DNA from: Thermodesulfovibrionia bacterium
GTDB taxonomy: Bacteria; Nitrospirota; Thermodesulfovibrionia; Thermodesulfovibrionales; SM23-35
Direction of reading: 5' to 3'
Assembly (NCBI GenBank): GCA_041500225.1
Contig: JBGQLV010000004.1
Location: 14,463-78,462 of the forward strand
Length of the DNA stretch: 64,000 nt
The notes under the pieces: model-generated
Told to the model about the DNA's origin: nothing
The model's input: only the letters and a program-made list of their open reading frames with translations
The model's database searches: none
In this document: one piece after another, positions 6,800-51,661 of the stretch
Position numbering within the stretch: the stretch's first letter is position 1
How the letters are laid out: every line of letters begins with the position of its first letter
Program-made: the position numbers and the translations under genes

Positions 6800-9700
6800 A
6801 TGACTATATTACACCTTTATCGAAAACCAGCCCTTTCGCTATCAAAGAGGAATGAACTGTTGTCAGTTGCACAGCAGAAGGTCTCTCCTGATATAAAGGA
6901 CATTGAAACAGAATACTGCTTTAATATCGAGACAATAACTCCTTTTACAGATGAGGAGCTTAATATAGTTCGATGGCTTTTAGCAGAGACATTCGAGCCG
7001 GAGAATTTTTCGGAGAGGAGTTTTTTGACTCGTCACTCGTCACTCGTCACTCGTCACTGTCTTTTGGAGGTTGGCCCGAGGATGAACTTTACAACAGCAT
7101 GGTCAACAAATGCAGTATCGGTATGCCATTCTTGTGGCCTCAAAAAAATTACACGAATAGAGCGTTCAAGAAGATATAAATTAATATTTAATCAGCAAAT
7201 ACCCCCCCTCAATCCCCCCCCTGCTAAGGGGGGGCGAAGGAGGGGTAGTTCATCTTCCCTTCAACCTTCAACCTTCAACCTTCAACTTTTTTTAGAACTT
7301 ATTCATGACCGGATGACAGAGTGTCCCTATCCGGAAAGCCTTACCACTTTTGAGACATGTAAAAAAGCAGAGCCTGTTTACATTGTTCCACTGATTGAAG
7401 AGGGCAAAGAGGCTCTAAAAAAGATAAACATTGAAATGGGACTTGGGTTGGATGACTGGGATATAGATTATTATTACAACCTCTTTGTTAATGGCATAGG
7501 ACGTAATCCTACTAATGTAGAGTGTTTTGATCTCGGTCAATCAAACAGCGAGCATTCAAGACACTGGTTCTTTAAAGGAAGATTAATTATTGATGGGGAG
7601 AAAATGCCCTATACACTGATGGATATAATCAAGCATCCCTTGAAGACTAACCATGGTAACAGTATCATTGCCTTTAAAGATAACTCAAGCGCAATTCATG
7701 GTTATGAGATATTTACCATAATACCTGAGCATCCAGACAGGCCTTCACGTTTCCAAGGTTCAAGACTCGATTATAATATTATCTTTACAGCCGAAACACA
7801 CAATTTCCCTACTGGTGTAGCACCTTTCCCTGGAGCGGAGACAGGCACAGGAGGAAGGATAAGAGATGTTCAGGCCACAGGCAGAGGTAGCTTAGTTATA
7901 GCAGGTACTGCTGCATACTGTGTAGGTAATCTGCGAATACCCGGCTATCCTTTACCATGGGACGATCTGTCATTTGAATATCCACCAAACCTTGCTTCTC
8001 CGCTTCAGATAGAGATAGAGGCAAGCAACGGCGCATCTGATTATGGCAATAAATTTGGTGAGCCAGTAATACAGGGTTTTACAAGGTCTTTTGGTTTGAG
8101 ATTACCGGATGGTGAAAGACGGGAATGGGTTAAGCCAATAATGTTTACTGGCGGTGTAGGACAGATAGATAACAGACATATCGAAAAGGGGAAACCTGAA
8201 AAAGGAATGTTCGTAGTCAAGATTGGCGGTCCTGCATATCGAATTGGCATTGGAGGAGGAGCAGCATCGAGTATGATACAGGGAGAAAACATTGCCGAAC
8301 TTGATTTCAGTGCCGTGCAGCGTGGCGATGCTGAGATGGAACAGAAGGTAAACAGGGTCATCAGGGCGTGCGTAGAAATGAGTGATAAAAATCCTATCAT
8401 TAGCATCCATGATCAGGGCGCTGGCGGAAACTGTAATGTTGTGAAGGAAATCGTTTATCCTGCTGGTGCAAAGATAGAAATAAGAAATATCCAGCTTGGC
8501 GATAACACGCTATCAGTACTTGAGATATGGGGTGCAGAATATCAGGAACAGAATGCATTACTAATACAACCTGACAGGAGTGAAGAATTTTTTGCCCTCT
8601 GTAAAAGGGAGAAAGTTCCTTGTTCCTTTATCGGAGAAATTACAGGCGACGGTTATATCGTGCTTCATGATGAGACAGATGGCAGTACATCTGTAAATCT
8701 TGATCTTTCAAAGGTTCTTGGTGAGATGCCACAGAAAATTTTTCATATTGACCGAATAAAACCTCCTCTTGAGCCCTTAAGATTACCAGAGGGTATAACA
8801 TTAAAAGATGCTCTCGAAAGAGTGCTCCGTCTTATATCAGTAAGCTCTAAAAGATTCCTTACCAATAAAGTAGACAGATCTGTTACCGGTCTAATTGCAC
8901 AGCAGCAATGTGTCGGCCCTCTTCAGCTTACATTATCTAATGCGGCGGTTGTAAGTCAAAGTCATTTTGGATTAACAGGTGCAGCAATAGCTATCGGCGA
9001 ACAACCAATAAAGGGACTGATAAGCCCACAGGCAATGGCTCGAATGAGTGTTGGTGAAGCACTAACAAATATTATGTGGGCAAAAGTGAGCGCCGTCGAA
9101 GATATCAAATGTTCAGGGAACTGGATGTGGGCAGCAAAGCTTCCCGGCGAAGGCGCCAGGCTTTATGACGCGGCTGTTGCTATGAGTGATTTAATGGTTA
9201 AACTCGGCATTGCCGTTGATGGAGGTAAAGACAGCCTCTCGATGGCTGCCATGGTTCCTGGTGCATCAGGCAAGACCGAAATAGTCAAAGCTCCAGGTGC
9301 CCTTGTTATTTCTGCCTATGCCACATGCCCTGATATTACAAAGGTTATCACGCCTGATATAAAAAAGCCAGGTGAAAGCAGGCTGATTTACATTGATCTC
9401 GGCAATGGGAAATATAGAATAGGTGGCACTGCCTTAGCCCATGTCTACGGACAGGTCGGAAATGAATCTCCCGATCTGGATGACCCTCAGCTTCTCAAAC
9501 GCACCTTTAATGCCATACAGAGATTCATTTCAGAGGACCTGATTATTTCAGGTCATGACAGAAGCGATGGCGGGTTAATAACAACTCTACTTGAAATGGC
9601 ATTTGGGGGAAATTGCGGGATTGAGGTAAATATTAAGTCTTCAACACCCCCTCATCCCCTACTTGGTAAAAATCCCCCCATCCCCCCTTTACTAAAGGGG

Positions 9701-10879
9701 GGTGAGGGGGGATTACAGGAAATGATATTTCCTCTGTTATTCTCAGAAGAGCTTGGAATGGTAATTGAATATCTACCTGAAAATGAAAAAGAAATATTAT
9801 CTACATTCTGTAAAGACAATATTCCTTTCCAAATCATTGGTACTACCTCCTCTGAAAAGAGAATAAAAATAAACATCAATAATGAATTAATTCTTGATGA
9901 AGATATGCGTGTTCTCAGGGCTATCTGGGAAGAAACAAGTTATCAGCTTGACAGGCTTCAGGCAAACCCTGAATGTGTTGATGAAGAAAGGATAGTTAAT
10001 TTTAATAGAAAAGGACCACAATATAGACTGACATTTACACCAGAGAAGACACCTCAGAAGATCCTCGAAAACGATATTAACCCAAAGGTTGCAGTGATCC
10101 GTGAAGAGGGTAGTAACGGTGACCGCGAGATGACTTCTGCCTTTTATCAAGCTGGTTTTGAGGTATGGGATATAACGATGACAGACCTCCTTGAGGACAG
10201 AGCAAATCTTGAAGACTTCAGAGGTATTGCCTTTGTAGGTGGATTCAGTTATGCCGATGTCCTTGATTCAGCTAAAGGATGGGCAGGGGTAATCAGGTTT
10301 AATAAAAGACTCTATGAGCAATTCCAGCGGTTCTATGAAAGGCCTGATACCTTCAGCCTCGGTGTCTGTAATGGGTGCCAGCTTATGGCACTTCTTGGCC
10401 GGATTCCATGGAAGGGGATTTCTGACAAGATTCAACCAAGATACATACAGAATAAATCCGGACGGTTTGAATCAAGGTTTTCAACAGTTCATATCCTGCC
10501 GAGTCCTTCTATAATGCTAAGAGGAATGGAAGGTTCTACTCTTGGTGTATGGGTCGCACATGGTGAGGGAAGGCTCTATTTCCCGGATAAAGAAATAATA
10601 CAGGAAGTTTTTGAGAAGGGCCTTGCACCAATAAGATTTGTTGATGACGGTGGAGAAATTACCGAGACGTATCCATTTAATCCAAATGGCTCTCCTTCAG
10701 GCATAACAGCCCTCTGTTCACCTGATGGGAGGCATCTTGCAATGATGCCCCATCCAGAAAGGACATTTCTAAAATGGCAATGGGCATATATGCCAGAGGA
10801 TTGGAAGAAAACCCTCGAAGTTTCTCCATGGTTAAAAATGTTCCGGAATGCGAGGGAATGGTGTGCGGAAGAAAATTAA
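6800..10879 (+). CDS. purL: Phosphoribosylformylglycinamidine (FGAM) synthase, large single-chain type
   Basis: 1359 aa. SNSEHSRHWFF, TAETHNFPT, GAETGTGGRIRD and a C-terminal glutaminase domain (GVCNGCQLM, HGEG, MPHPER). Colinear with E. coli PurL as I recall it, apart from three insertions. Confidence 0.95.
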   Translation: MTILHLYRKPALSLSKRNELLSVAQQKVSPDIKDIETEYCFNIETITPFTDEELNIVRWLLAETFEPENFSERSFLTRHSSLVTRHCLLEVGPRMNFTTAWSTNAVSVCHSCGLKKITRIERSRRYKLIFNQQIPPLNPPPAKGGRRRGSSSSLQPSTFNLQLFLELIHDRMTECPYPESLTTFETCKKAEPVYIVPLIEEGKEALKKINIEMGLGLDDWDIDYYYNLFVNGIGRNPTNVECFDLGQSNSEHSRHWFFKGRLIIDGEKMPYTLMDIIKHPLKTNHGNSIIAFKDNSSAIHGYEIFTIIPEHPDRPSRFQGSRLDYNIIFTAETHNFPTGVAPFPGAETGTGGRIRDVQATGRGSLVIAGTAAYCVGNLRIPGYPLPWDDLSFEYPPNLASPLQIEIEASNGASDYGNKFGEPVIQGFTRSFGLRLPDGERREWVKPIMFTGGVGQIDNRHIEKGKPEKGMFVVKIGGPAYRIGIGGGAASSMIQGENIAELDFSAVQRGDAEMEQKVNRVIRACVEMSDKNPIISIHDQGAGGNCNVVKEIVYPAGAKIEIRNIQLGDNTLSVLEIWGAEYQEQNALLIQPDRSEEFFALCKREKVPCSFIGEITGDGYIVLHDETDGSTSVNLDLSKVLGEMPQKIFHIDRIKPPLEPLRLPEGITLKDALERVLRLISVSSKRFLTNKVDRSVTGLIAQQQCVGPLQLTLSNAAVVSQSHFGLTGAAIAIGEQPIKGLISPQAMARMSVGEALTNIMWAKVSAVEDIKCSGNWMWAAKLPGEGARLYDAAVAMSDLMVKLGIAVDGGKDSLSMAAMVPGASGKTEIVKAPGALVISAYATCPDITKVITPDIKKPGESRLIYIDLGNGKYRIGGTALAHVYGQVGNESPDLDDPQLLKRTFNAIQRFISEDLIISGHDRSDGGLITTLLEMAFGGNCGIEVNIKSSTPPHPLLGKNPPIPPLLKGGEGGLQEMIFPLLFSEELGMVIEYLPENEKEILSTFCKDNIPFQIIGTTSSEKRIKININNELILDEDMRVLRAIWEETSYQLDRLQANPECVDEERIVNFNRKGPQYRLTFTPEKTPQKILENDINPKVAVIREEGSNGDREMTSAFYQAGFEVWDITMTDLLEDRANLEDFRGIAFVGGFSYADVLDSAKGWAGVIRFNKRLYEQFQRFYERPDTFSLGVCNGCQLMALLGRIPWKGISDKIQPRYIQNKSGRFESRFSTVHILPSPSIMLRGMEGSTLGVWVAHGEGRLYFPDKEIIQEVFEKGLAPIRFVDDGGEITETYPFNPNGSPSGITALCSPDGRHLAMMPHPERTFLKWQWAYMPEDWKKTLEVSPWLKMFRNAREWCAEEN
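7028..7061. repeat. Heptanucleotide tandem repeat (actcgtc x4 plus a degenerate fifth copy) inside purL
   Basis: Direct read: actcgtc actcgtc actcgtc actcgtc actgtc, translated as TRHSSLVTRH. Confidence 0.9.
7202..7285. repeat. GC-rich imperfect palindrome followed by heptamer tandem repeat (ccttcaa x4), in-frame inside purL
   Basis: ccccccctcaatcccccccc tgctaa gggggggcgaaggagggg, then ccttcaa x4. Encodes PPLNPPPAKGGRRRGSSSSLQPSTFNLQ. Confidence 0.85.
9645..9713. repeat. GC-rich palindromic element in-frame inside purL
   Basis: acaccccctcatcccc ... aatcccccccatcccccc tttactaaa ggggggtgagggggg att. Encodes TPPHPLLGKNPPIPPLLKGGEGG. Confidence 0.85.
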
Positions 10880-16854: not shown

Positions 16855-17149
16855 ATTATATCTTAAGATAATTATATCTCAAATCCAAAGTAAAAGCTTT
16901 AACCCGAAAAATGCAGTTGACATCAGTCATATATGCAGAAAAACCTTTACAAATCGCAATTTGGTTTTAAATGAAATCAGTATGTTATGCATGAAAACGT
17001 GGAGGTTCAACCGTGTTTGAATAGTCCTACAAAGGTAGCGATGGTAAAACTTTTTCTGCACATATGCCTGCTTCATTTTTTACTAATTGCATTTTTCGGG
17101 TTAAGTAGGCAGGGCAGTAAATATGAAGTTATGCAGAGAATATAAGTTT

Positions 17150-34823: not shown

Positions 34824-35366
34824 ATGGCTGAGAGATGTGTAATTGGAACTGAGGAAAGAATTATTGACTTTATAACCGGGCAGCTATTCATTGATACTGA
34901 TGATGAAAGGATCAGACAGAAGATAGAGCGGCTTCTAATTGAAGAGAAAGGTTATTCAAAAAAGGATATTGAAGTTGACAGGGAATTCGAGATTGTTATA
35001 GGTGAAGAAATAAACAGATCAAAGGTTGACCTTATTGTAAGTGTTGAAGAAAAAATTTTCATGATTATAAAATGTGCTCGTGGTTCATTGATCTCGAGGG
35101 AGAGGGAGGTTCTGTCTTGTGCAAGGATCCTTGATACTTATATAATCCCTTTTGCTGTTGTCACCAATGGAGAGGATGCCGAAGTTCTGGACACTATATC
35201 TGGTGAAGTAATTAGCTGTGGTTTAGGAGCGATACCCTCAAAGAATCAAGTATTAGAAGCCCTCGGAAGAATTGAATTCAAGAGACTTCCAGAAAAAAGG
35301 ATTGAGAAGGAAAAGAGAATCTTTTTAGCATTTGATGCATTCAAATGTCCCTCAGAATGTGATTAG
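34824..35366 (+). CDS. Stand-alone HsdR_N-like (PD-(D/E)xK fold) domain protein
   Basis: 180 aa. ..KVDLIVSVEEKIFMIIKCARGS..PFAVVTNGEDAEVLD resembles the type I restriction HsdR N-terminal domain family. SD GGAGG. No hsdM or hsdS in the window. Confidence 0.5.
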   Translation: MAERCVIGTEERIIDFITGQLFIDTDDERIRQKIERLLIEEKGYSKKDIEVDREFEIVIGEEINRSKVDLIVSVEEKIFMIIKCARGSLISREREVLSCARILDTYIIPFAVVTNGEDAEVLDTISGEVISCGLGAIPSKNQVLEALGRIEFKRLPEKRIEKEKRIFLAFDAFKCPSECD

Positions 35367-35587
35367 GGGTGTTTTATTTTAGGCCCTTCTGGTTGTAAGC
35401 ACTTATTCATCTTCTTCCCGCAATGTGGACAATCGGGTATATCTTTACTATTGCTTTCCATATCCGACCTTCTGAGATCGATTTAAAGTGATTTGATACA
35501 ATTTTTTTTAAAATACATGGAAAGTTTACAATATAAAATATATTATTTATAACTCAAAAATCAAGATTCCCTATATAATTTATTTTA

Positions 35588-35730
35588 CTATTGAGGTTCT
35601 TGCAAAAGTCTCAAATGGGCACCCTCCCCAACCCCTCCCGTCAAGGGAGGGGCTTATTTATCAACCCTTTCCCCTGGTGGGAGAGGGCAAGGGTGAGGGG
35701 GTTGATGGAGTTTTGCAAGAGCCTCTATTA
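35588..35730. repeat. ~140-bp MITE-like element with GC-rich hairpin core
   Basis: Arms ctattgaggttcttgcaaaagtc / gagttttgcaagagcctctatta. Core cccctccc gtcaa gggagggg and ccctttcccctggtgggagagggcaagggtgaggggg. Confidence 0.8.
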
Positions 35731-35923
35731 ATATATTTTATTAATATATTTTATGGCTCTATTTTTTATTGACAAAAACATATGTTTTGTATTTAACTAA
35801 TACGCCTGAATATCTTCACAGAATATAAATGAACGTGCAATTAAATTATGCTATAACGTCATTTGGGATGTTCGAAATTTTTTTATATGCCTTGAGCATA
35901 TAACCATTATATGGAGGGATACT

Positions 35924-37177
35924 ATGGCAGCGGAGAAAACAAAAAGTATATTAGTTGTAGGCGGTGGAATCAGTGGAATAACCGCCGCAGTGGAGGCAGC
36001 CGAGGTAGGGTATGAAGTCACCCTTATCGAGAAGAATCCATACCTTGGTGGAAGGGTAACCCAGCTCAACAAATACTTCCCAAAGTTATGCCCACCAAAT
36101 TGCGGGCTTGAGATTAATTTCAGAAGGATTAAAAATAATCCGAGAGTAAAAATTTACACCTTAGCAGAGGTAGAAAAGATCTCTGGCTCCGAGGGTGACT
36201 TTGATGTAACGGTAAAACTGAATCCCCGCTATGTAAACGAAAATTGTACAGCCTGTAAAGCCTGCGTCGAGGTATGCCCGGTTGAGAGGCCAAACGATTT
36301 CAATTTCGGTATGGATAAAACAAAAGCCATTTATCTTCCTCAAGACTTTGCCTTTCCATTGAGATATGTTATTGACGATAAGTACTGCAAGAAAGCAGAA
36401 TGTGCTAAGTGTGTAGAGGCTTGCACATATAAGGCTATTGACCTCAATATGAAGGCTCAGAGCCTTTCATTAAAGGTAGGCTCTATTGTTTGGGCTACGG
36501 GTTGGAACCCTTATGATGCCACGAAAATTGATAATCTTGGATTTGGGAAGTATCAAAACGTCATAACAAATATGATGATGGAGAGGCTTGCCTCTCAAAA
36601 TGGCCCTACTAAAGGTAAAATCCTTCGTCCCTCTGATGGAAAAGAGCCCTCAAGGATAGTCTTTGTCCAGTGTGCCGGCTCCAGAGATGAAAATCACCTT
36701 TCATACTGCTCCTATGTGTGCTGCCTTGCCTCTATGAAACAGGCTACCTACATACGGGAGCAATATCCTGAGGCAGAGATATTCGTATTTTATATAGATA
36801 TTCGTACACCAGCAAGGGCTGAAAGGGTCTACCTCAGGGCACAGAAGGATGAAAAGATAAAGTTTATTAAAGGTAAGGTTGCCAAGATAGAGGAAGATCC
36901 TGCCACAAAGGACCTTACAGTTACCGCAGAGGATACCCTAACATTACAGAAGATTCATGAGAAGGTTAATCTTGTTGTCCTTGCCACTGGTATGGCTCCC
37001 ACCACTCAACAATGGAAAGTTCCTGCAAACATATCCTATGATTCAGACGGTTTTATTTTATCTAATGCTGGTATGTATGCTGCTGGTTGTGCCTTAAAGC
37101 CTATAGATGTCTACTCATCTGTCCAGACTGCTACAGCGGCAGCCCTTAAGACTATTCAATCTTTGGTGAGGAGGTAA
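35924..37177 (+). CDS. qmoA: Quinone-interacting membrane-bound oxidoreductase subunit A (HdrA-like flavoprotein)
   Basis: 417 aa. ILVVGGGISGITAA FAD fold and Cys clusters (CTACKACVEVCP). Positioned ahead of qmoBC. Confidence 0.85.
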   Translation: MAAEKTKSILVVGGGISGITAAVEAAEVGYEVTLIEKNPYLGGRVTQLNKYFPKLCPPNCGLEINFRRIKNNPRVKIYTLAEVEKISGSEGDFDVTVKLNPRYVNENCTACKACVEVCPVERPNDFNFGMDKTKAIYLPQDFAFPLRYVIDDKYCKKAECAKCVEACTYKAIDLNMKAQSLSLKVGSIVWATGWNPYDATKIDNLGFGKYQNVITNMMMERLASQNGPTKGKILRPSDGKEPSRIVFVQCAGSRDENHLSYCSYVCCLASMKQATYIREQYPEAEIFVFYIDIRTPARAERVYLRAQKDEKIKFIKGKVAKIEEDPATKDLTVTAEDTLTLQKIHEKVNLVVLATGMAPTTQQWKVPANISYDSDGFILSNAGMYAAGCALKPIDVYSSVQTATAAALKTIQSLVRR

Positions 37178-47511: not shown

Positions 47512-47561
47512 TGCTATTGATATCCAGAATTTTAAAGGATTAGTATACCCATTAGTTGCAT

Positions 47562-47734
47562 AAAAAAGGAGGCAGACATGCTGAAAAACCCCTGCAAAGC
47601 AACAAAATATAATTATGTTACACATAAATGCAAATTTAACGCTAGGTGCATTTTGCAAAAAGGCTGGCTGGCCAGGCTTGAGGGCTCTAAGGTGTCGCTG
47701 GCAGGCCTTTTTCAGCACATCTGCCTCCTTTTTT
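47562..47734. repeat. 173-bp element bounded by 27-bp imperfect inverted repeats that contain SD-like AAGGAGG
   Basis: Left arm aaaaaaggaggcagacatgctgaaaaa. Right arm tttttcagcacatctgcctcctttttt. 25 of 27 positions are complementary. Confidence 0.8.
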
Positions 47735-47993
47735 AATAAAACTTTTTGCAACGTTTAGGTATAGTAGTGATAAAGGGAGTATAAGAAGGAAAATATAAAG
47801 GTGGCAAGATGAAGATTTTGAAGAGGTTAATTTTAATATCAGGTGCGGTTGCACGCTCTATCATTGGGATAGGGGCGACTGTATTACTCTTTTTTGCTTT
47901 GAAAAAGAAAAAAGGGAAACAATTATGAGATGTAAGATAAATCTTTGGTATTTTTATTATTTTATAGTATTATGGTTATATATCTGATTTTAA

Positions 47994-49151: not shown

Positions 49152-51482
49152 ATGGAAAATGGTGTGCAATTTACAGATGAACTAATCGGTGAGCTATCTG
49201 AACTGTGCGGGATACTTTTAGAATACTGGGATATTTTTGGTAAAAAGCATATAACTTCTGTTGAGACCAAAAAGGCGATACTCAGTGCGATGAAACTGAA
49301 GATTAATTCAGCCGGGGATATAATTAAAGAAATTAATGAACGAAAGTGGAAACCATGGAAAAACTTTATCGAACCTGTGCATGTCATATCAGTAAATGAC
49401 CAGCCTGTGACAGTCCCTGTTTATATACCCATCAAAAAGGATGAAGAAGCTAAACTTATAATTTCTTGGTCTATAGAAGATGAAAATGAGCAAAAAGCTG
49501 AGTTTATACTTGCATGGAACGCCATAACAATCTCGGAAATACAATGGATAGATGGGATAAGATTTATAAAGATAAACCTCTCGGATGCGGTATGCCGAGC
49601 TATTGGTTATTATGTAATTCATGTAGAGTGCAAACATCCTGAAAACATCTTTCCAGGCGGAGTAAACCTTTTACAAAAAACATCTAAGGTTATATTAACT
49701 CCTGATACCTGTTATTTACCACCTGAACTACAGAAAGGAAGGACATGGGGCCTTTCCGTTAATCTTTACTCAATCTGTTCGGCACGAAACTGGGGCGTTG
49801 GTGATTTTACTGACCTTAAGAAAATTGCCAGGTGGGTTGCTGATTTGAAGGGTGGCTTTATAGGAATCAATCCGCTACATGCAATTCCAAACACAAAACC
49901 CTTCGGGATCAGTCCGTATTCTCCTGTAAGCAGGCTTTATAAAAATTTTATTTACCTTGATGTAGAAAGCATACCTGAAGTAGCAGAATCAGAAGATGTC
50001 AGGGCAATCATGACATCTGAAGATTTTAATAAAGAATTGAATAAACTCAGAAAAGGAAACTTAGTTGATTACGAAAAGGTTGCATTAGTGAAAGAAAGAA
50101 TTCTAAGGAATGCTTTTGTTCTCTTTTATAAAAAACACTTCACACGAAATACTCGTCGTAGCAGGAATTTTAAGAAATACATATCAGAAGAAGGTACTGC
50201 CCTCGAATATTTTGCAATATATATGGCACTTGCATCACGATACGGGGTAACAGGGATGCGGAGATACAGAGAAACAGAAAAACAGAACAGTTGTGAGATC
50301 CCCGAATCTCCGAATCTACGGGTTTCCCTTTTACTGAATTGGCAGGAGTGGCCTGAAGAATATCGCAAATTATCAGGTAAAGCGGTTCAGATATTCAAGA
50401 AAGCAAATAAAAAGGAAGTACTCTTTTATAAATATATCCAGTGGCTTATTGATAATCAACTCAAGGAAGTTTCCGAAGAGGCCATAAATCACGGAATGGC
50501 TGTAGGGCTTTACCATGACCTTGCTATTGGTTCTCTTGGGGGGGGAAGCGATGCCTGGAGTTATCAGGATGTCATTGCAAGAGAAGTAGATGTTGGAGCC
50601 CCTCCTGACGATTTTAGTCCGCATGGCCAGAACTGGGGATTCCCTCCACTGATTCCGGAGAAATTGGAGGAGACAGGATATGAATTGTTTATCCAGACAA
50701 TAAGAAAAAATATGAAATACGGTGGTGCCCTTAGGATAGACCACGCCCTCGGCATGTTCAGGCTTTTCTGGATACCCCATGGCATGTTCCCCAAAGAAGG
50801 TGCTTATATAAGCTATCCATCAGAGGATCTTCTCAGAATTATTGCTTTGGAAAGTATTCGGAACAGAACTATAGTGATTGCTGAAGATCTGGGCACGATC
50901 GGTGAAAATGTTAGAGAAACGCTTCAGAGATTTCATATGCTTTCTTACAAGCTTTTTTATTTTGAGAGGAATTATCCTGACCCGTCATTTGTTCCACCTG
51001 ATAAGTACCCTGATAAGGCTTTGTGTGCCTTAACAACTCACGACCTGCCAACAATATACGGTTACTGGGCAGAGCAAGATTTAGAGATAAAAAAACAACT
51101 CGGTATATATTGTGACGACACTCTATGGCAGGAACAGGTCAATGAAAGAGAAAGGGACAAGAGACTTATTCTCTCTGCCCTTAAGTCTCTGGGAATTATC
51201 TCTGATGAGTACCTGTCAGAGCCGAAAATGATTCCTAAGATGACACCTGAACTATGCCTTGCTATATACCATTATCTTGCACTTACACCTTGTAAACTGT
51301 TGCTGGTCAGCCTCGATGATATCATTGGTACACTGAATCAGCAAAACATGCCCGGCACAGTCGGTTCATATCCCAATTGGCTGCAAAAAACACCGCTCAC
51401 TCTTGAGGGAATGGTTTCAGACAAACGATTTATTACTCTTTCTGAGATGTTTAAAAATATTTACAAAGGAGTTCATAAGTAA
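49152..51482 (+). CDS. malQ: 4-alpha-glucanotransferase (GH77 amylomaltase) with N-terminal extension
   Basis: 776 aa. GVGDFTDL, NPLH, GISPYSP, LRIDHALG, AEDLG, THD. These are GH77 catalytic blocks. Confidence 0.9.
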   Translation: MENGVQFTDELIGELSELCGILLEYWDIFGKKHITSVETKKAILSAMKLKINSAGDIIKEINERKWKPWKNFIEPVHVISVNDQPVTVPVYIPIKKDEEAKLIISWSIEDENEQKAEFILAWNAITISEIQWIDGIRFIKINLSDAVCRAIGYYVIHVECKHPENIFPGGVNLLQKTSKVILTPDTCYLPPELQKGRTWGLSVNLYSICSARNWGVGDFTDLKKIARWVADLKGGFIGINPLHAIPNTKPFGISPYSPVSRLYKNFIYLDVESIPEVAESEDVRAIMTSEDFNKELNKLRKGNLVDYEKVALVKERILRNAFVLFYKKHFTRNTRRSRNFKKYISEEGTALEYFAIYMALASRYGVTGMRRYRETEKQNSCEIPESPNLRVSLLLNWQEWPEEYRKLSGKAVQIFKKANKKEVLFYKYIQWLIDNQLKEVSEEAINHGMAVGLYHDLAIGSLGGGSDAWSYQDVIAREVDVGAPPDDFSPHGQNWGFPPLIPEKLEETGYELFIQTIRKNMKYGGALRIDHALGMFRLFWIPHGMFPKEGAYISYPSEDLLRIIALESIRNRTIVIAEDLGTIGENVRETLQRFHMLSYKLFYFERNYPDPSFVPPDKYPDKALCALTTHDLPTIYGYWAEQDLEIKKQLGIYCDDTLWQEQVNERERDKRLILSALKSLGIISDEYLSEPKMIPKMTPELCLAIYHYLALTPCKLLLVSLDDIIGTLNQQNMPGTVGSYPNWLQKTPLTLEGMVSDKRFITLSEMFKNIYKGVHK

Positions 51483-51487
51483 GGCGT

Positions 51488-51661
51488 CATTATTGAAAAA
51501 TCTCCCCTCGCCCCTCTCGGTTGCGAGTCGTACCGACTTTGCTAAAGAGGGGTAAATTCCCTCCCTTTGGTAAAGGGAGGTGAGGAGGGATTTTATAATC
51601 AATGTCTTCATACTTATGAGCTTATTAGTAACTTGTAATTCCCTGTGGTCTTGCCGCAGGG
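51488..51661. repeat. GC-rich palindromic repeat cluster between malQ and glgC
   Basis: agtcg tac cgact; cctcccttt ggta aagggagg tgaggaggg; and ccctgtgg tcttg ccgcaggg (51641-51661). Confidence 0.75.

Follow-up and report, generated by a model that had tools for sequence, protein, structure and literature searches.

Short palindromic repeats of a dispersed family in frame within a hypervariable loop of purL in the Thermodesulfovibrionales

A complete palindromic element, preceded by half of a related unit, lies in frame and free of stop codons within the purL gene of a 64,000-nucleotide stretch of DNA (the window), whose host is assigned to the order Thermodesulfovibrionales (Nitrospirota) from its PurL relatives. 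The element belongs to a dispersed repeat family, is absent from other PurL enzymes and occupies a loop that is hypervariable among close orthologues. It is probably a selfish palindromic repeat resembling REPs and Rickettsia palindromic elements (RPEs), present as one full and one half copy, which is translated and tolerated in a permissive loop of PurL. Selfish palindromes that lie in frame in housekeeping genes have been described above all in Rickettsia, with a few cases among REPs. New here is the same behaviour in free-living Nitrospirota, with a far smaller unit, no known REP tag and many sister repeat families.

Host gene and architecture of the insert

The purL product aligns over its full length with human PFAS (9N9W, E = 0) and Salmonella PurL (1T3T, E = 2e-271). 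Pfam assigns FGAR-AT_N (residues 38–177), the linker (206–255), AIRS_C (468–623), a PurM_N-like domain (683–841) and GATase_5 (1095–1355), and the chain thus displays the large-PurL architecture of N-terminal domain, linker, two PurM-like AIRS modules and triad glutaminase domain in a single polypeptide.

Nucleotides 9645–9713 encode the peptide TPPHPLLGKNPPIPPLLKGGEGG in frame in purL. Sequence and peptide are as given in a preliminary description of this DNA, apart from the outer left arm of the palindrome, which had been transcribed with seven C and actually reads AATCCCCCC, with six. The spacing between the GNCG and LFSEEL motifs amounts to 39 residues, compared with about 15–16 in the Salmonella and human enzymes, and the insert at 9645–9714 accordingly adds about 24 residues to a loop that follows residue 919 in 1T3T and has 4–6 residues in solved PurL structures. 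The variable portion of the loop (site 3) spans 5 to 50 aa, with a median of 20, among 120 orthologues and carries several unrelated repeat-derived peptides; the loop is stop-free and in frame in 84 of 84 purL genes checked. Since the solved Salmonella and human enzymes lack the segment and close orthologues differ in it, it is extra DNA relative to other PurL, as had been proposed, and not a conserved feature of unrelated PurL proteins. In an AlphaFold model of a fragment, poor overall (mean 54.9) and used only locally, the insert is predicted as coil of pLDDT below 50, flanked on either side by confidently modelled elements. The best reading of the insert-bearing segment is a permissive, putative surface loop.

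As judged from its sequence, the insert is a composite in which half of a TACC/CACC-type unit is fused to one full AATC-type unit (Table 1). The left side of the full unit consists of AATCCCCCC (9671–9679), AT (9680–9681) and CCCCCCTTT (9682–9690), followed by the loop ACT (9691–9693) and the right side AAAGGGGGG (9694–9702), TGA (9703–9705) and GGGGGGATT (9706–9714). The stem is formed by pairing of AATCCCCCC with GGGGGGATT and of CCCCCCTTT with AAAGGGGGG. Folding confirmed the hairpin that had been suspected: as DNA the unit reaches -19.7 kcal/mol (z = -3.7), with none of 200 shuffles as stable, and the RNA fold of the longer stretch 9640–9745 gives -40.2 kcal/mol (z = -2.5). The arm of the half copy complements the G arm (9697–9711), and in this longer RNA the upstream arm 9647–9660 pairs preferentially with the G arm. 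Direct reading of the window copy finds stops in two of the three frames, the remaining open frame being the one used.

The same architecture of one and a half units is present in L083, whose PurL protein is 81–84% identical, and a full hairpin of the TACC/CACC-type unit is found at the same place in L081 (PurL protein 91% identical). The sequence of the small AT-rich palindrome directly 3' of the element also follows it in L083 and L002, and LQE(M/I)IFP recurs in the orthologues P0006, P0028 and P0051. Relatives share this palindrome, and it is probably one of the older components of the loop.

Table 1. Coordinates of purL and of the repeats discussed, as positions in the window.
Feature	Position	Strand	Remarks
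purL, large FGAM synthetase (host gene)	6800–10879	+	1359 aa, intact ORF
Perfect heptamer array ACTCGTC x4.4, purL hot spot 1	7028–7058	+	TRF
Family copy in frame at purL hot spot 2; TACC subtype with degenerate right arm	7198–7249		R1 35.7 bits, E 7e-8; encodes IPPLNPPPAKGGRRRG
Perfect heptamer array CCTTCAA x4.1, just 3' of hot-spot-2 palindrome	7258–7286	+	TRF
Half copy (left arm and loop, CACCCCCTCATCCCCTACTTGGTAAA) of related TACC/CACC-type palindrome	9645–9670	+	Encodes TPPHPLLGK
Complete AATC-type palindromic element	9671–9714		R1 covariance model, DNA fold, consensus match; encodes NPPIPPLLKGGEGG
Small AT-rich palindrome AGGAAAT-GAT-ATTTCCT	9717–9733	+	Directly 3' of element; encodes (L)QEMIFP; second helix in RNA fold
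Intergenic degenerate family copy without one C block	51552–51595		R1 31 bits, E 2e-6

A dispersed family of bipartite palindromes

A covariance model, R1, was built from 16 copies of other genomes with the window left out. On both strands it matches positions 9667–9717 (68.4 and 65.7 bits, E 3e-17), and over the whole window the only other significant sites are the hot-spot-2 copy in purL and an intergenic copy 70 nt downstream of the ORF at 49152–51482. Kinship of the insert with sites near 7202 and 51561 had been proposed earlier; since R1 is significant at all three sites, the copies are related on formal alignment. The core CCCCCCTTTNNNAAAGGGGGG, allowing up to three mismatches, matches the same three sites in the window and none in 100 shuffles. 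C-type palindromes at 35627–35706 did not reach significance in the R1 search (E about 0.5). A generic repeat finder run on the whole window did not bring the family to the surface, in contrast to a purpose-built hairpin scan and the covariance model.

The element matches the consensus of 56 copies from the hairpin scan of purL-centred loci and of 85 metagenome copies. This consensus, AATC6-N2-4-C6TTT-N3-AAAG6-N2-4-G6ATT, describes a bipartite palindrome of 43–48 bp (about 45), with flanks that are random beyond A at -1 and T at +1. At least 120 metagenome stretches contain the strict pattern, and context was analysed for 85 copies on the 80 loci listed among them. Of these copies 46 lie in non-coding-like DNA and 16 at ORF edges, so that 62 of 85 are outside long ORFs or at their edges and the family is mostly extragenic, the copy studied here being itself intragenic. 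The remaining 23 lie deep inside long ORFs, a count that is not independent evidence against removal or bypass, as the scan is blind to frame-breaking copies. About a quarter of the copies are thus in frame within unrelated housekeeping genes, the hosts including CarA, MetH-like, HisA/F, AroC, MurD, MnmE, Der, RibD and RtcA proteins among others, often between Pfam domains. Contigs of 39–71% G+C carry the same stems, with spacers and loops tracking the composition of the host; CarB on the high-GC contigs is 75–78% identical to proteins of many phyla. Complementarity between the internal spacers (8 pairs, against 6.2 expected from shuffles) is not significant. No Rfam family matches the element, and the literature searched contained neither the family itself nor a description of comparable elements from Nitrospirota or Thermodesulfovibrio.

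Insertion, turnover and concentration in purL

Two observations bear on the mobility of the family. The mnmE gene of L131 and its 79%-identical orthologue in L209 form one filled/empty pair that differs by exactly the 45-nt element, in frame and without target-site duplication. In addition, a 51-nt unit in L005 and L021 is nested within a copy that is present alone in L010 and L083; the inner copy of L021 is intact and the outer one decayed. Anchored and free searches for a target-site duplication were no different from the control and flank-repeat lengths equalled those of shuffled sequences, a single 10-bp flank repeat in L090 being an outlier. For the window copy no clean empty site was found because the loop is too variable: purL hot spot 3 and site 3 are too divergent, and only mnmE yielded such a site. 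When the 1420 open frames of 90 codons or more on the 80 element-bearing loci were clustered, no transposase emerged near the copies; the recurrent families there are common ones, for example ABC ATPases and histidine kinases.

In the Thermodesulfovibrionales sample, 46 of 60 copies are situated in purL, which makes up 23.6% of the sampled DNA, corresponding to a density about ten times that of the surroundings. Simple random insertion does not account for this concentration. The purL copies fall at five loop hot spots, with the frame kept in all 46. Even near-identical strains differ in these loops: across purL the window, L081 and L082 share 94–96% DNA identity, yet their inserts are entirely different at three of the hot spots. 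Around the HS5 insert of L082, substitutions are clustered. At hot spot 2, L064 holds a perfect 20-bp palindrome of the unit that is degenerate in the window, and LQPSTFNLQ is kept after this palindrome in many orthologues. Heptamer arrays form a companion repeat class at the same purL loops; GACGAGT, the reverse complement of the hot-spot-1 heptamer, flanks an intragenic element copy in L087.

The stems in the window, L083 and L018 are identical at 36 of 36 positions, although only 48–69% of purL third codon positions agree. Invariant stems amid scrambled synonymous sites are not expected of a passenger that is strictly neutral and inherited vertically, and re-insertion, gene conversion or selection is needed. 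Conservation of the stems far exceeds that of the host gene.

Origin of the insert and relation to known repeats

Copy lengths are multiples of three, and one frame is free of stops. If the insert is a tolerated selfish repeat, the copies would therefore be read through by the ribosome and translated. The resulting loop would be proline-rich and then glycine-rich, with CCN codons from the left arm, GGN codons from the right arm and Leu/Phe-x-Lys at the tip, and PurL would stay intact as an enzyme. Translation without harm is what we infer. The element may have arrived by a hairpin-recognising, duplication-free route, in which, for example, an HUH/Y1-type transposase might act in trans as has been suggested for REPs, or through homologous recombination, which would bring in loop 'cassettes' from diverged alleles.

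Alternatively, the hairpin could be under selection for a function of the DNA or mRNA in purL, such as pausing and co-translational folding at a subdomain boundary, mRNA stability or protein binding, the peptide being incidental. Stems that are fully conserved where synonymous sites of orthologues are largely randomised point in this direction, as do their constancy across host compositions, the roughly ten-fold density above the flanks and the several hot spots, together with many intragenic copies at Pfam domain boundaries. This explanation is unlikely, given that the element is missing here in most orthologues, that strains with 94–96% identity hold unrelated sequences at the site, that the family is mostly extragenic, that spacer complementarity stays at shuffle level and that Rfam contains no match. 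A related and rather improbable reading takes the two-block C6/G6 hairpin as a nucleotide-level signal, which would be actively maintained in coding sequence by selection, gene conversion or re-insertion and recognised by a factor common to distant bacterial lineages, and which in purL would mark loop 'cassette' sites at which strains exchange whole inserts or translation pauses between subdomains. The invariant stems, their occurrence on contigs of such different G+C content, the density in purL and the wholesale replacement of loops are compatible with it.

It is very improbable that the loop is a local low-complexity expansion, made in place by slippage or foldback synthesis, with convergent likeness to other sites and no dispersed family. 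The slippage-type heptamer arrays occur in the same loops and the one-and-a-half-unit arrangement can be read as a partial tandem duplication, but the same 45-nt consensus with AAT/ATT ends and random flanks recurs both between genes and inside dozens of unrelated ones, model E-values range from 1e-6 to 1e-17, and the mnmE pair differs by exactly one element. GC-rich bypass elements ('byp') exist in some yeast mitochondria, and the insert is likewise a stable GC-rich hairpin amid AT-rich coding DNA. An intervening sequence that is cut out of the RNA or skipped by the ribosome, and so never reaches the protein, is nevertheless extremely improbable. Neither process would exert pressure to keep the frame and avoid stops, yet the frame is kept in 84 of 84 site-3 loops and in each of the 46 purL copies, the nested unit and the mnmE insert measure 51 and 45 nt, and the single open frame of the window copy is the one in use. 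Intron, intein and bypass readings were therefore rejected on frame conservation and size.

Among known systems, the tolerated selfish repeat is closest in behaviour to RPEs, which are summarised in PMC10969869 (after Ogata et al. 2000, 2002) as palindromes in frame in many unrelated housekeeping genes, with the ORF preserved, translated as an extra peptide at a tolerated position, also present as non-coding copies and read as selfish DNA. By that summary, hairpin-forming palindromes, non-coding copies and in-frame copies with the ORF kept (intact purL, the 23 of 85 copies deep in ORFs, the 45 nt in mnmE) are common to both. On the same description the present family is set apart by its unit of about 45 bp with a two-block C6/G6 hairpin, against about 100–150 bp in RPEs, and by a free-living host instead of the obligate intracellular Rickettsia.

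REPs of the GTAG and CGTC superfamilies are short imperfect palindromes present in many copies. Most are extragenic, often lying a short way downstream of a gene; a smaller share sits inside ORFs, encoding 20–30 aa when grouped, and target duplication is absent (Di Nocera et al. 2013, PMC3733652). The family described here is likewise mostly extragenic, near gene ends and without target-site duplication. It differs in having neither the GTAG nor the CGTC tag at its ends (the 85 copies show no GTAG and no CTAC within 10 nt of an end, and CGTC or GACG five times in total), in a longer, bipartite stem of 18 bp in two blocks, in having no gene like RAYT, the dedicated Y1 transposase of REPs, near the copies on the 80 element-bearing loci, and in exact copies on contigs of very different composition, REP families usually being lineage-specific. 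MITEs, which depend on a DDE transposase, have terminal inverted repeats and target-site duplications and usually measure 100–400 bp; the family does not fit this class, as the unit is about 45 bp, forms one hairpin as a whole and shows no duplication. Small dispersed repeats of cyanobacteria, reportedly 21–27 nt long, precisely inserted, nested and adjoined by heptameric STRR arrays, resemble the family in being tiny hairpins with precise insertion, nesting and heptamer tandem neighbours. They differ in sequence and phylum, and frequent in-frame residence in enzymes is not among their reported features. Yeast mitochondrial GC clusters are likewise GC-rich palindromes, which spread through an AT-rich genome and sometimes sit in frame within a coding gene; they are organellar and of other sequence and mechanism.

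With purL as a natural hot-spot gene, the family offers a tractable system for how proteins gain loop segments from repeats and for what propagates duplication-free hairpin repeats. In practice, when conserved marker proteins of these MAGs are aligned, such inserts inflate and fragment the alignment, and they give rise to spurious hypothetical ORFs of the 'PPLxKGG' type.

The insert in the fourth variable loop of PurL

The PurL protein of the window matches the structure of human PFAS (1450 bits) much more strongly than that of Salmonella PurL (906 bits). Between its GNCG and LFSEEL motifs lie 39 residues, versus about 15-16 in Salmonella PurL (1T3T) and human PFAS (9N9W), where the variable stretch of this loop comprises just 4-6 residues. 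An alignment of the best 120 PurL relatives, Thermodesulfovibrionales/Nitrospirota MAG proteins of 1248-1423 aa with 72-100% identity, displays five loops of variable length (reference residues 78-87, 132-166, 663-667, 947-976 and 1081-1094), termed hot spots 1-5. The segment 9645-9713 (site 3), which encodes TPPHPLLGKNPPIPPLLKGGEGG, is the insert in the fourth loop, whose length ranges from 5 to 50 aa among the relatives. By Pfam placement, site 3 is situated within the second AIRS_C-type module, and hot spots 3 and 5 fall between domains. In an AlphaFold model of residues 641-1077, which is poor overall (mean pLDDT 54.9), the insert forms a coil with local pLDDT <50, neighboured by a confident strand on one side and a helix on the other.

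The sequence of 9645-9713 in the preliminary description agrees with the window, save for one C too many in its transcript. The proposed hairpin-forming palindrome was confirmed: as DNA, 9671-9714 folds with -19.7 kcal/mol (z = -3.7; 0 of 200 shuffles as good). In the RNA fold of a longer stretch, an upstream C arm at 9647-9660 is the preferred partner of the G arm. Comparison with close relatives divides site 3 into two parts, a partial TACC/CACC-type and a full AATC-type unit. The former is complete in L081 (PurL protein 91% identical). In L083 (81-84%) both the 1.5-unit architecture and the 3' tail are as in the window, L002 (79-81%) has the AATC unit with the left arm deleted, and L082 (91%) contains an unrelated heptamer-type insert instead.

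Variable loops of different PurL orthologues are occupied by several unrelated repeat-derived peptides, namely PPxPPLxKGGxGG, the type present in the window insert, NAECRLQNAEYSEIRNPKSA, MQDAGYRMQD..., KKIRSSEDKKSKLHNLSTSQL, ERVRGFEDSRGR...SLEPLTPRILE, TRHSSLVTRHC and LQPSTFNLQ. The underlying DNA consists of GC-rich palindromes, or of heptamer tandem arrays followed by their own reverse complement.

Coordinates of purL, its repeats and related copies (window positions unless prefixed by a comparison locus)
Feature	Position	Strand	Details
purL	6800-10879	+	1359 aa ORF
Heptamer array	7028-7058		perfect, ACTCGTC x4.4; hot spot 1
R1 match	7198-7249		E 7e-8
Heptamer array	7258-7286		perfect, CCTTCAA x4.1; hot spot 2
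Left arm and loop, TACC/CACC-type unit	9645-9670		
R1 match	9667-9717		68.4 bits, E 3e-17
Full AATC-type unit, two-block hairpin	9671-9714		AATCCCCCC-AT-CCCCCCTTT, loop ACT, AAAGGGGGG-TGA-GGGGGGATT
R1 match	51552-51595		E 2e-6; in gap after 49152-51482 ORF
purL loops replaced wholesale vs L081/L082	7010-7061, 9611-9752, 10007-10091		
Nested insertion	L005:2890-3075, L021:11909-12094		hot spot 3
Outer copy alone	L010:11918-12052, L083:5492-5626		hot spot 3

Definition and distribution of the palindrome family

With up to 3 mismatches, the core motif has three matches in the window versus none in 100 shuffles, and these are exactly the sites singled out previously (7202, 9645-9713 and 51561-51590). 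Their proposed membership of one family is formally supported, since R1, a covariance model of the palindrome trained on 16 copies, all from other genomes, is significant at all three; it has no further significant match in the window. Scanning the window and 80 purL-centred loci for hairpins yielded 93 of C-first/G-last type versus 25 of opposite polarity. The consensus aligned from these hits reads (A/T)AATCCCCCC-N2-4-CCCCCCTTT-N3-AAAGGGGGG-N2-4-GGGGGGATT(T/A), and TACCCCCCC...GGGGGGGTG is a sister subtype. An Rfam search revealed no family matching the palindrome.

Across 83 purL-centred loci (80 plus L081-L083; 1.42 Mb in total), R1 detected 60 distinct sites, 46 of them in purL, where they gather at the five hot spots. 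With purL accounting for 23.6% of the bases, elements are about 10.7 times as dense there as in the rest of the DNA; a further nine sites fall within other long ORFs, and five are non-coding. A strict-pattern search of metagenome contigs, not centred on purL, matched at least 120 stretches. The matches listed include 85 copies on 80 loci (23 deep in long ORFs, 16 at ORF edges, 46 in non-coding-like DNA), none located in purL. Hosts include CarA, a MetH-like protein, HisA/F, GH57 branching enzyme, TatD, chorismate synthase, NuoG-like, RtcA, RibD, MurD, MnmE, Der, DNA methylase, PilM and DAG kinase, the intragenic elements often being positioned between Pfam domains.

Flanks of these listed copies are random past A(-1)/T(+1), and their ends carry neither a GTAG nor a CGTC tag. 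Target duplication around copies is absent, and no recurrent transposase-like neighbour was found at the metagenome loci. Contigs L084-L163, which bear exact full-length copies, have G+C contents of 39-71%; spacers and loops follow host composition (TCG/CGA and GGC in high-GC hosts, AT-rich in low-GC hosts) with the stems unchanged. The nearest named relatives of the MnmE host are Syntrophales/Deltaproteobacteria (53-58% identity), CarB of high-GC contigs matches many phyla at 75-78% identity, and the family probably spans several phyla. Exact full-length copies also occur on five contigs of the IMG/VR viral collection (L204-L208).

Turnover and interpretation

Evidence of movement comes from mnmE: relative to its orthologue in L209 (79% identical), the gene of L131 contains an addition that is precisely the 45-nt element, which keeps the frame and shows no duplication. 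At hot spot 3 of purL in L005 and L021, a 51-nt unit interrupts an older copy where its left arm meets the loop, and this older copy stands alone in L010 and L083; in L021 the inner copy is intact and the outer one decayed. The purL DNA of the window, L081 and L082 is 94-96% identical, yet at hot spots 1, 4 and 5 their inserts differ entirely. Clustered substitutions surround the hot-spot-5 insert of L082, which suggests that it may have been imported by recombination.

The best reading, which we consider likely, is a selfish palindrome resembling RPEs (Rickettsia palindromic elements) and REPs, tolerated and, by prediction, translated in a permissive loop of PurL. The site-3 stems, read from the sequences, match at all 36 positions among the window (9671-9714), L083:6464-6513 and L018:7193-7243, with differences only in spacers and loop. 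In these genomes, third codon positions of purL are 48-69% identical, and those at conserved Pro/Gly codons 43-60%. Stem identity despite diverged third positions therefore calls for re-insertion, gene conversion or nucleotide-level selection. The last of these would correspond to a DNA or RNA signal under selection, an unlikely explanation; spacer complementarity within the element is not above chance.

Local slippage is a very improbable origin of the insert. Heptamer arrays are present in loops of the same gene. In all 84 purL genes examined, the site-3 loop is in frame and without stops, and a non-translated intervening sequence is the least probable account. For the selfish palindrome several analogues are known, among them the small dispersed repeats of cyanobacteria and the GC clusters of yeast mitochondria. 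Intragenic REPs (PMC3733652) and RPEs (PMC10969869) are further analogues. The purL palindrome departs from the RPE-defining features in length and host, and it is missing the tag which defines GTAG/CGTC REPs. Among the papers searched, none describes elements of this kind in Nitrospirota. Set apart by its length, its host and the missing tag, the family is therefore a new one, an analogue rather than a member of RPEs or REPs.

Further repeats in the window

Perfect heptamer tandem arrays with at least four copies occur in the 64-kb window only at 7028-7058 and 7258-7286; as seven is not divisible by three, adding or removing a single unit would cause a frameshift. In the metagenome contigs L087 and L098, these heptamers also flank intragenic element copies. 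Just upstream of the intergenic 51552 copy, a second degenerate unit, CCCCTCGCCCCTCT ... CTTTGCTAAAGAGGGG, is found at 51505-51550, apparently split by about 20 nt (cggttgcgagtcgtaccga); the gap thus holds two decayed copies. Another subtype, not significant under R1, is represented by two C-first/G-last palindromes (CCCTCCCC..GGGAGGGG and CCCTTTCCC..GGGAGAGGG) at 35627-35706, in the intergenic gap 35366-35924; it is the 'PSPSRGEGEG' type known from purL hot spot 1 of relatives. The longest inverted repeat of the window (47561-47595 / 47701-47735) consists of 35-nt arms with 89% complementarity, separated by 105 nt, and is resembled by a 27-nt pair at 16924-16950 / 17044-17070.
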